This document shows positions 21,001-24,000 of a DNA stretch of 64,000 nucleotides, piece by piece. This DNA is from Escherichia coli. Lineage in GTDB: Bacteria > Pseudomonadota > Gammaproteobacteria > Enterobacterales > Enterobacteriaceae. The position numbers were made by a program. The stretch's first letter is position 1, and every line of letters begins with the position of its first letter. The stretch lies in assembly GCF_016903815.1 (NCBI RefSeq), contig NZ_CP069973.1; one strand, written 5' to 3'.

Positions 21001-24000
21001 CAGCCAGTAATATAACCGCCAGCAGGGAAAACGATTTAATGGAACTATTCATCATTGTTAACCTTAAATAATGTACGGAAAATTGCGAATAAGAAATTGC
21101 TGTTAAAATTAGAACGAATATCCCACGCCGACACCCGCACCGAAATCAGATTGTGTATCCGCAGAAATACCTGCTTTAAGTACCGTATGCGTTCCGGCAT
21201 TAAAAGATGTTCCTACAGACACCGCAGATTCACCGTTGAAGGTTCCCGCTCCCGCTGACACCATCATCAAGTCACCGGTTTTCACCTGTGGTTGTGAGGC
21301 GATAGCGATGGCTGATGCAGTTCCCGCATTGGCTTCTTTACGATTGTCCTCAACTTCGTTTTTCAGAGAATCGAAATGGTTATTGAGCGTGTTAATTTGT
21401 TGGCTGTTATCTGCGACCCGTTTTTGCGTGTTGGTTAACTGTTGCTGCGTTTGTGCGGAATCTTGTCTCAGACTTTCAATTTGCTCATGTGCCTGGACAG
21501 ACTTCTGCGCCAGACTTTGCATTTGTTTATCGTATTGAGCCCTTTCTTTTTGCTGTTGTGCTGCCACATCGGTTGTCAGTGCATTCATTTTCTGCCCTTG
21601 TTCCGTGGTAGTGCGCTGATTAGCCTCATTTTGAGCCGCCAGCCTGGCATTAATCATCTCCTGATAATGCGCGGTATTTTGCGTATCTCCAGTCGCGGCG
21701 AGCGTTTTTTGTGTGGCTACGATCTGCGCCTGTTGCTCTGTAATTTGCGTTTGCTGGGCATCAGTTACCGCAGACTGTCGGGCGTTGATCATGCTCTGAT
21801 AACGGGCGGTTGTCTGTACATCACCTGTAGCGGCAACGGTTTTTTGTCCTGCGTCAGGATCTGTCTGGACAGGGGGAGTCTGAGTGGTATCAGGTGTTTC
21901 AGAAGGGATGTAGTGATGTTCAGTCAAATAGGTATACGCAGCGGGGCTGTTGTCTGTGCGTTCTAAAAAGCGGGTAATCTTCTGCTCAATCTCCGATTGC
22001 GACATGCCAGAGTTAATGGCTGAAAGCTCTGTTGCCGCCGCTTCAATGGTATCACCAGCTAAAACAACAGGGCTGGATGTTGCTGAAATTATGAGTGCCA
22101 GTAAAGCTACGTTTACAGTTTTCATTCATTTTCTCTTGTTCAAAATAAGTCGCATTAATGTTTCTATAAGAAACAAATAATATTGTTTTAAGAAATAAAC
22201 TGCGTTGCAATTTAATCGAAATCTACGCCGCCATTTGTGTGATGTAAAGCGCATTTTTGTCTGGTGTAAGCGTAAACACCACCAATAAGAAACAAAAAAT
22301 GTTTCTTATATAAATAAAATCGAAAATCATTTTGTGCTCTTTCAATGTAAAAAAGAGTAAAGACTTGTTTTGATAAGCGAAATAAATTCTGTTTCTGGAC
22401 TAAACGTGAAGCGGTTCCTGATGTGTGCTAAAATGCGTTTCTTTGATAAATCTCAATTTTTAAGAGGTTTACGCCAGGCAGGAAAATTTAAATGAATGAA
22501 TTTGAGAAGATTTTTAATGAAATGAATCTGGACCGGGCATTGCTACCGATCCTTTTTCGTTCGAACCGGTCAACAGTGTGGAAATATTTAAGTGGCGATA
22601 GTACGGCTCCTGCCTCAGCTATGTCACTGATTATGCTGTTGCAGTTAATCCAGAAACGAAACCCCGATCTGTTAGCCGAATGGTTAACGCTTTCTGATTT
22701 CACCATTCCGCCAGAAGTTTACCTGGACCAGCCTGATTACTGGAAAGGGTGGGTGTATACGCAACACAAGGTCAATAAAAACGTCCTGGAATATCTAAAA
22801 AAACATTATCCGGATGAAGACCAAAAAAACATGAATAAAGGTAGTGACGAGTAATTTGCCAATGCCAGTTAATATAGCGGAGGCGGCCTACGATTCGGGC
22901 GCAGACTTCCAGGCATGATAAGACGCGCCCGCGCCGCATCAGGCATCAGCGCATAACCGCCGGATGCGGCGTAAACGCCTTATCCGGCCTACAATTCGGG
23001 CATATTTTGTAGGCATGAAAAGACGCGTCAGCGTCGCATCAGGCGATGACCGCACGGATGATCAGCGTTATCCCTTCTATCGCAATGACTTCAACATGCG
23101 TACCTGCACCGAGATCCTCGCTGGCGCTGACAGGCCATGAACTGTCACCGACGCGCATATGACCGCGCCCGTTGACCAGTGGAGATTCCAGCACAAAACG
23201 TCGGCCAATCAGCTGCTGCCCGCGCTGGTTTAAATGACTGTCGCTGTGCTTTTGTTCGCGCACCCGCCGCGACAACCATTTCCACCACAGCCAGGCGGCG
23301 AGCAGCGTCAGGACGGCAAACATCACCCCTTGCCACTCCCAACCCAGCGGCAACAGCCAGACCACCAGGCCGGTAATCACCGCTGCCACGCCGCTCCACA
23401 ACAGATAACCATTGCCGCCCAACATCTCGGCTGCCAGCAGCAACCCGCCGAGACTGAGCCAGAAAATATGTGGATGAACGACCATTAACTCCATCATGGC
23501 TGAGTCCGCTTGTTGGCGCTGTCTTTCACCAGCTCGGCAATCCCGGCAATCGACCCCATCAGGCTGCTGGCCTCTAATGGCATCATCACTACTTTGCTGT
23601 TACTGGACGAACCGATCTGCTGTAACGCTTCGGTGTATTTCTGCGCTACGAAGTAGTTCACCGCCTGAATATCGCCGGAGGCAATGGCTTCAGACACCAT
23701 TTTGGTGGCGCGGGCTTCTGCTTCAGCGGAACGTTCACGCGCTTCGGCCTGTAAGAATGCCGACTGACGTTCACCTTCCGCTTTCAGGATTTGCGACTGT
23801 TTTTCACCTTCGGCTTTGAGGATTTCCGCCTGACGGATCCCTTCCGCTTCGAGGATGTAAGCGCGTTTGGTACGTTCCGCTTTCATCTGCGCGTTCATTG
23901 AAGAGATAAGCTCTGCCGGTGGGCGCACGTCGCGAATTTCAATACGGGTGACTTTAATCCCCCACGGGTTGGTGGCCTCATCGACAATACGCAGCAGGCG

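Follow-up and report, generated by a model that had tools for sequence, protein, structure and literature searches.

A REP cluster of the atypical BIME kind at the right-hand border of a variable cueR-ybbJ segment in Escherichia coli

REP clusters and the cluster next to ybbJ

Repetitive extragenic palindromic (REP) sequences are imperfect palindromes with a mismatch in the stem and a GTAG/CTAC foot, sorted into Y, z1 and z2 types, and in the atypical class of bacterial interspersed mosaic elements (BIMEs) they occur as multiple units whose number differs between strains (PMC3333891). A cluster of such units lies between a 120-aa open reading frame (ORF; 22492-22854, + strand) and ybbJ (23039-23497, - strand) in a 64-kb stretch of Escherichia coli DNA (contig NZ_CP069973.1), called the window below and serving as the reference whose positions are used for all coordinates. 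It represents nothing new in kind, being an ordinary atypical BIME of E. coli. Its Y-z1 pair is the unchanging right-hand border of a slot between cueR and ybbJ in which the cargo varies, and haplotype breakpoints lie at either edge of the pair. The joint explanation that fits best, and that is very probably correct, is that of an ordinary atypical BIME which has, as we infer, a two-way role in 3' untranslated regions (3'-UTRs) and which is the fixed right border of the cueR-ybbJ cargo slot.

With the REP and BIME elements of E. coli in general, this cluster shares units of 34-36 nt that alternate in orientation and are separated by linkers, a 3'-UTR position between convergent genes, and a large number of copies in the genome. 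It departs from them in that one of its units lacks the GTAG foot and in that the last unit overlaps the ybbJ stop codon and, the locus being absent from K-12, it stands outside the 355 catalogued K-12 REPs. The closest described systems are REP325, a BIME of MG1655 and the BIMEs targeted by the insertion sequence (IS) IS1397. REP325, from which the two-hairpin Rfam model naRNA4 (RF02564) is derived, resembles the cluster in its head-to-head REP unit of two hairpins (71.9 bits to the family model), but it consists of 12 alternating z2/Y units between the tandem genes yjdM and yjdN, whereas here three z1/Y units and a fragment lie between convergent genes. The BIME between yaiL and frmB of MG1655 is 82% identical over 136 nt, linkers included, and also separates convergent genes, but it is another locus with no tie to a variable cargo slot; the region of the MG1655 record examined has no annotated REP repeat features, and hence offers no catalogue name for this paralogue. 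The IS1397-targeted BIMEs, as at the 3' flank of fetB in strain IAI39, belong to the same neighbourhood and show a REP cluster as IS target and as rearrangement junction; in contrast, no IS is present in or beside the window cluster, nor at that place in any strain examined.

The cluster spans 22882-23044 (163 bp) and is made up of an orphan tail and three units oriented -, + and -. The orphan tail, GGCGGCCTAC (22882-22891, + strand, with CTAC at 22888-22891), is what is left of one more Y-type unit, at the cluster's left end: it is a direct repeat of the tail of the complete Y unit (94% identity, 101-nt spacing) and can be aligned to complete units in other Escherichia loci. Seventeen nt downstream follows a degenerate z1-like unit (22909-22944, - strand) with five substitutions and one insertion relative to the z1 consensus; its head, GCCTGATGCGGCG, is exact, and its foot is CCTGG (also given as CCAGG) and not CCTAC, so that the GTAG/CTAC tetranucleotide is lost. 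The middle unit (22959-22992, + strand) is a canonical Y REP with no mismatch to GCCGGATGCGGCGTRAACGCCTTATCCGGCCTAC (chance expectation 0.00) and a CTAC foot at 22989-22992, and its core is invariant in 11 haplotypes with an occupied slot from five Escherichia lineages. The last unit (23009-23044, - strand) is a z1 REP with two mismatches to the z1 consensus (chance expectation 0.00) and a GTAG foot at 23009-23012. The linkers between units are short, 14-18 nt. The Y and z1 consensus strings are corroborated by an Rfam match and by paralogues throughout the genome.

The original prediction, made from the window sequence, had described a run of about 165 bp of REP-type palindromes between the 120-aa ORF and ybbJ. 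The units and the length agree with it, but the run reaches into ybbJ: at the head of the last REP (23035-23044; ybbJ-strand sequence GCCTGATGCG), GCCTGA coincides with the final 6 nt of the gene, made up of Ala152, the last sense codon, and the stop codon TGA (23039-23041). The remainder of the cluster lies between both ORFs. The spacer separating these convergent genes (the 120-aa ORF on the + strand, ybbJ-qmcA on the - strand) measures 184 bp.

Membership in the REP family is evident from the hairpins with a stem mismatch, the GTAG/CTAC foot, the match to the Y and z1 consensus and the high dispersed copy number: the median E. coli genome has at least 24 similar places, most of them intergenic and without annotation. 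Alternating orientation and intervening linkers make the cluster a BIME, and it falls in the atypical class because it has neither the IHF site and long linker of BIME-1 nor the z2 unit of BIME-2. BIME-1 consists of a single z1 + Y pair around a long conserved L linker, often with an IHF site, and BIME-2 of tandem z2 + Y pairs joined by S linkers. Here the linkers are 14-18 nt long, there is more than one pair, and no site for integration host factor (IHF; WATCAANNNNTTR, at most one mismatch) was found; no z2 unit occurs within six edits anywhere in the window. The z1 and Y units, the short linkers and a unit number that varies between strains are those of an atypical BIME. A repeat search of the window recovered the inverted arms and a direct duplication of about 100 bp, at 88-94% identity; Tandem Repeats Finder did not report this duplication and returned merely a trivial 7-nt repeat. 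No second cluster of such kind is present anywhere in the 64-kb window.

The predicted unit hairpins are imperfect and bulged, with an unpaired CTAC/GTAG foot, and range from -11.6 to -21.3 kcal/mol across the three units. The Y hairpin (22959-22992) is the most stable of them at -21.3 kcal/mol (z = -5.0), and the z1 hairpin at 23009 reaches z = -3.4. When the whole cluster is folded, each strand forms either the unit hairpins or a long hairpin between Y and z1 units, at -73.5 and -77.9 kcal/mol.

The cueR-ybbJ slot and its breakpoints

In the window, the slot between cueR (20022-20429, + strand) and the REP cluster is filled by a variable cargo, module A (20430-22854). The autotransporter module that had been predicted between cueR and ybbJ is real and variable: it encodes a protein with a YadA_anchor domain, and its GC content is 43%, compared with 57-59% in the flanks. 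More precisely, GC content is 42.9% in module A, 60% in the REP cluster and 57-59% in the flanking core genes; by this contrast of 60% and 43%, the cluster is DNA of native type, whereas the cargo has a foreign look.

Strains with and without the module were aligned, the K-12-type junction serving as the empty reference. In K-12-type genomes cueR and ybbJ meet stop to stop (TGA|TTA), with zero spacer and no REP, and this empty junction is found at 99% identity or more in 3204 of 5426 complete E. coli genomes. On the left side, K-12, strains with another cargo (module B, described below) and the window are colinear through the cueR TGA and diverge at 20429|20430; this breakpoint (20427-20432, + strand), which covers the cueR stop codon (20427-20429) together with the first bases specific to the module, lies 2.45 kb from the cluster and has no REP. 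On the right side, the breakpoint falls between 23047|23048 and 23066|23067, 3-22 nt beyond the last REP, in a zone (23045-23066, - strand) where the last ybbJ codons are unlike those of the K-12-type allele. Over ybbJ 23039-23066, 13 of 28 positions differ from K-12 (locus L002, 3998-4025), followed by 100 nt with no difference at all; the in-frame match of YbbJ to the K-12 protein does not extend past the Val150 codon (23048-23050), and at 23067 the nucleotide sequences become fully identical again. The YbbJ tails read GITLHIRAVSS* in K-12 and IIRAVIA* in the REP-type allele. The whole REP cluster is thus inside the variable segment, and its last REP supplies the ybbJ stop codon. The predicted location of the cluster at the right-hand boundary of the module is borne out by these alignments of module-bearing and module-free strains; breakpoints away from the cluster, the outcome named beforehand as speaking against that location, were looked for by strain alignment and not obtained.

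The occupied forms of the slot are diverse in cargo and constant at their right end. Module A followed by the BIME is present in 1404 of the 5426 complete E. coli genomes, and 966 genomes contain module B, likewise followed by the BIME, a segment of 1.3 kb unrelated to A, complete or internally deleted, whose frameshifted ORF has no Pfam match. A composite form, cueR-B-A-BIME-ybbJ, is represented by strain 20Ec-P-124 and accounts for at least 148 genomes by arithmetic; in it, B and A are joined without an intervening REP, and comparison with B-only strains places the right end of the A-specific sequence 8 nt before the Y unit. The same Y-z1 pair is kept against ybbJ in every occupied form, whatever the cargo (A, B, composites or remnants). 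The number and shape of units vary: 483 genomes have the double unit seen in the window, a single Y-z1 pair in a 102-bp spacer is found in N68, 20Ec-P-124, E7-1N7 and IAI39, O157:H7 has a 178-bp variant, and the z1 unit of module-B strains carries an internal deletion of 11 nt. In IAI39 (locus L092, 48024-49520), where module A precedes the single pair, an IS4 has inserted into the last cueR codons, adjacent to the slot's left breakpoint.

The Y-z1 pair and the IIRAVIA* tail also occur in the five other Escherichia lineages sampled. The pair follows B only in E. albertii, B and A in E. whittamii and Escherichia sp. E1V33, and B with a fragment of the 67-aa ORF of module A in Escherichia sp. 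MOD1-EC7003, while in the divergent 'E. coli' SCPM-O-B-8794 (locus L010, 4460-4610) the last ~50 nt of the 120-aa ORF are followed by the pair and ybbJ. In this shortest form, found in none of the 5426 complete genomes, cueR is about 150 nt from ybbJ. SCPM-O-B-8794 is its own species representative in the genome collection, and its cueR is about 93% identical to that of typical E. coli.

A cross-species sample of 80 Enterobacteriaceae species/loci (E. fergusonii not among them) showed cueR and ybbJ abutting or overlapping (-9 to +5 nt) in 46. Roughly 20 other loci, from Citrobacter, Kosakonia, Phytobacter and others (for instance locus L015, 4460-7305), have a different cargo of about 2.85 kb at the cueR|ybbJ junction, in which the ybbJ strand encodes a DUF3142 protein and a 714-aa protein that has no Pfam match. 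Since other genera carry cargo at this place, the junction is a recurrent cargo site even without REP.

Several observations weigh against the reading of the cluster as a structured BIME and fixed border. The degenerate z1 unit at 22909 has lost its GTAG and folds at -14.3 kcal/mol with z = -0.8, and the folding of the whole cluster is moderately better than that of shuffled sequences (z = -2.1 and -2.9). The border role is a correlation across haplotypes that reflects few independent events, and the proximity of breakpoints to the cluster could simply follow from its being the final stretch of non-coding DNA ahead of ybbJ.

Origin of the empty junction and the part played by the REP

The K-12-type junction has an even chance of being a secondary deletion within E. 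coli, in the A/B1 crown, with its right end in the z1 REP. In that case, the REP cluster marks a deletion endpoint and not an insertion point. Several lines of evidence agree with such a deletion. All five non-K-12 Escherichia lineages sampled are occupied, and within E. coli so are strains of phylogroups B2 (ATCC 11775, NU14, ST131, O127:H6), E (O157:H7) and F (IAI39), the empty junction being found in K-12/REL606 (A) and O111:NM (B1). The empty junction is near-invariant, with at least 99% identity in its 3204 genomes, and one module-B strain has flanks identical to K-12 (left, 500 nt; right, 250 nt). The K-12 junction, GGGTGATTAAGACG, also resembles both the left junction of module B (TGATTAAG) and the z1 arm (GTGTGATAAGACGCG).

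However, a single event between those repeats leaves a length difference of 10 nt and 5-7 substitutions in 19 nt, and the K-12 tail RAVSS* is nearer to outgroup tails in 49 of 72 species, against 14 for the REP-type tail. With RAVSST* of Salmonella arizonae it shares 15 of 21 nt, compared with 11 of 21 for the REP-type tail, and abutting cueR|ybbJ is the rule in other genera. No intermediate allele with REP and K-12 tail is known from the genomes searched: a chimera of z1 REP and K-12-type ybbJ tail was not found, the best full-length matches (94.5%) being the ordinary REP-type tail, nor was the 28-nt K-12 tail found elsewhere in the composite loci, with up to seven substitutions allowed. A single microhomology deletion between TGATTAAG and TGATAAG, leading from module B to the K-12 junction, was considered and rejected as a complete explanation, given the 10-nt difference and the substitutions. 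Under either polarity, the z1 REP is at the right breakpoint.

The original prediction had gone further and suggested that the cluster may mark the insertion point of the module relative to the ancestral cueR-ybbJ junction. On this reading, a REP cluster already present there served as target or junction for module insertion, through IS elements, REP-associated tyrosine transposases (RAYTs) or REP-REP recombination. Its premise, that REPs attract IS elements, is sound (PMC1525189) and has an example in the fetB-flanking BIME of IAI39, which contains IS1397. The reading itself is nonetheless improbable. In its favour, a native-type cluster (60% GC) stands beside low-GC cargo (43%), haplotypes whose cargo is unrelated have the cluster in common, and 8 nt separate the end of the module-A indel from Y. 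Insertion of IS elements into REPs is documented (PMC1525189), BIMEs can be cleaved and recombined by TnpA-REP in vitro (PMC3333891), and about 3 kb away the fetB-flanking BIME of IAI39 is split by IS1397, with gene order broken.

On the other hand, no haplotype has cueR-BIME-ybbJ without cargo, the shortest form still retaining a remnant of the 120-aa ORF and being absent from the 5426 genomes. The empty site of the 3204 genomes has no REP, and in the 46 of 80 species in which cueR and ybbJ lie within -9 to +5 nt of each other there is no room for one. The left end of the module is at the cueR stop codon, where no REP occurs, and B and A are joined without REP in the composite. Neither a transposase nor an integrase gene was found in 20430-22854, as an insertion borne by an IS or transposon might have brought; the end repeats are at chance level, the longest direct or inverted match between the module ends being 8 nt, a length reached by 25% of shuffles, with no target duplication or terminal repeats. 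With a REP-free empty junction, no transposase and chance-level end repeats, the claim that the REP was an insertion target at the ancestral junction is not supported. The junction is marked by the cluster, but the data do not demonstrate that the REPs were the cause or the target of the insertion.

REP-like sequence is present at fetB in the window as well, where a short REP-like palindrome, GCCGGATGCGCAGCATCGCATCCGGC (26007-26032, in the fetB-cnoX spacer), directly follows fetB. At the corresponding 3' flank in IAI39 (locus L092, 40930-42550) the BIME is larger, with a z1 unit split by IS1397 and with rof adjoining fetB.

A bolder version, and a decidedly long shot, makes the Y-z1 pair an active and conserved 'docking border' at which RAYT/TnpA-REP cleavage or REP-primed recombination would repeatedly swap or delete cargo, and at which the stop codon embedded in z1 would tune YbbJ/QmcA output. 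If true, it would explain why unrelated cargo in five Escherichia lineages ends a few nt from the same REP, and YbbJ/QmcA output would be tuned differently in REP-bearing and REP-free strains.

Possible function and neighbouring features

About 60% of E. coli REPs lie between convergent genes, convergent gene pairs with a REP show higher expression, and REP325 brings about partial Rho-dependent termination and stabilises mRNA (bioRxiv 10.64898/2026.03.23.713779). By analogy, the cluster is most likely a hairpin block that works in both directions within 3'-UTRs. Whichever strand is transcribed, the hairpins would halt part of the read-through transcription, and they would block 3'-to-5' exonucleases on the transcripts of both convergent genes. 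On the - (ybbJ) strand the z1 stem at 23009-23044 is followed by TTTTCA and scored as a terminator-like site. Because the ybbJ stop codon is inside the first hairpin met on this strand, termination of ybbJ translation may also be affected. In the 2015 Mol Cell study of Liang, Rudd and Deutscher, a REP within about 15 nt of a stop codon reportedly lowers translation, by ribosome stalling and tmRNA; the same lowering may, by analogy, apply to ybbJ.

It is very unlikely that the cluster instead encodes a naRNA4-like, HU-binding nucleoid-associated RNA that organises the chromosome. The head-to-head z1/Y pair (22912-22989, - strand) does match Rfam naRNA4 above the gathering score (71.9 bits versus 59.5, E = 9e-12), a match also recovered by the whole-window Rfam scan, and naRNA4 has been reported to act with HU in chromosome organisation (PMC4550694). 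However, the Rfam model is essentially a two-hairpin REP unit, so that any Y/z pair matches it, the units here are z1/Y and not z2/Y, and REP325/naRNA4 itself shows no measurable nucleoid compaction or REP-REP contacts (bioRxiv 10.64898/2026.03.23.713779). The Rfam name 'naRNA4', assigned here from sequence similarity, is not to be taken as a sign that this locus makes an HU-binding RNA which organises the chromosome. That the cluster might be made of chance GC-rich hairpins or a plain intrinsic terminator outside the REP family, as one stem followed by a short T-run and a first unit folding no better than shuffled sequence might suggest, is virtually precluded, this non-REP identity being refuted by exact or near-exact consensus matches with zero chance expectation, by dozens of paralogous copies per genome and by the Rfam naRNA4 match.

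Beyond annotation, where the segment deserves a REP/BIME label instead of that of an anonymous spacer, the meaning of the cluster is slight. It is a landmark for the right edge of a polymorphic slot; roughly one complete E. coli genome in four has a YadA-family adhesin module in this slot. The locus is also a clean natural example of points already known, namely that REP position and unit number vary, that REPs border variable segments and that a stop codon can come from a REP. Comparing ybbJ alleles with and without the REP might show, as a natural experiment, how REPs affect a convergent gene pair.

The stretch of the window tested is 100% identical to strain 7/2 (NZ_CP023820.1), from which the RefSeq gene annotation was taken. 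Module A contains, from left to right, a 67-aa ORF (20433-20636), a 140-aa lipoprotein (20633-21055) and a 338-aa YadA-family trimeric autotransporter (21109-22125; Pfam YadA_anchor, E = 7e-12), all on the - strand, and the 120-aa ORF, for which no Pfam match was obtained. The 120-aa ORF is conserved at 96-97% in E. whittamii and Escherichia sp. E1V33. The divergent spacer between it and the YadA-family gene (22126-22491, 366 bp) is very AT-rich, with 29-33% GC, and is presumably the common promoter and regulatory region of both. On the other side of the cluster, ybbJ is followed by qmcA (23494-24411, - strand).

Upstream of cueR lies a giant ORF (11-16687, + strand; at least 5558 aa) for a type I-secreted adhesin, together with its ABC transporter (16691-18853, + strand) and its HlyD partner (18850-20025, + strand). 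This is a separate type I secretion locus outside module A, and a locus of this kind has been described as an RTX-like type I secretion system (T1SS) locus beside a CueR-like regulator in strain 042 and O157:H7 (PMC2808357). Positions 11-20025 form a second, independent presence/absence polymorphism, beyond cueR as seen from the slot: of the adhesin locus, K-12, N68 and module-B strains have only a 98-bp remnant of the HlyD 3' end, overlapping the cueR start. The adhesin-locus and module-A polymorphisms are unlinked, because N68 has module A without the adhesin locus. Farther along the window, 51309-51375 (+ strand) matches the enterobacterial small RNA STnc480 in Rfam (RF02068), with 84.9 bits against a gathering score of 72.

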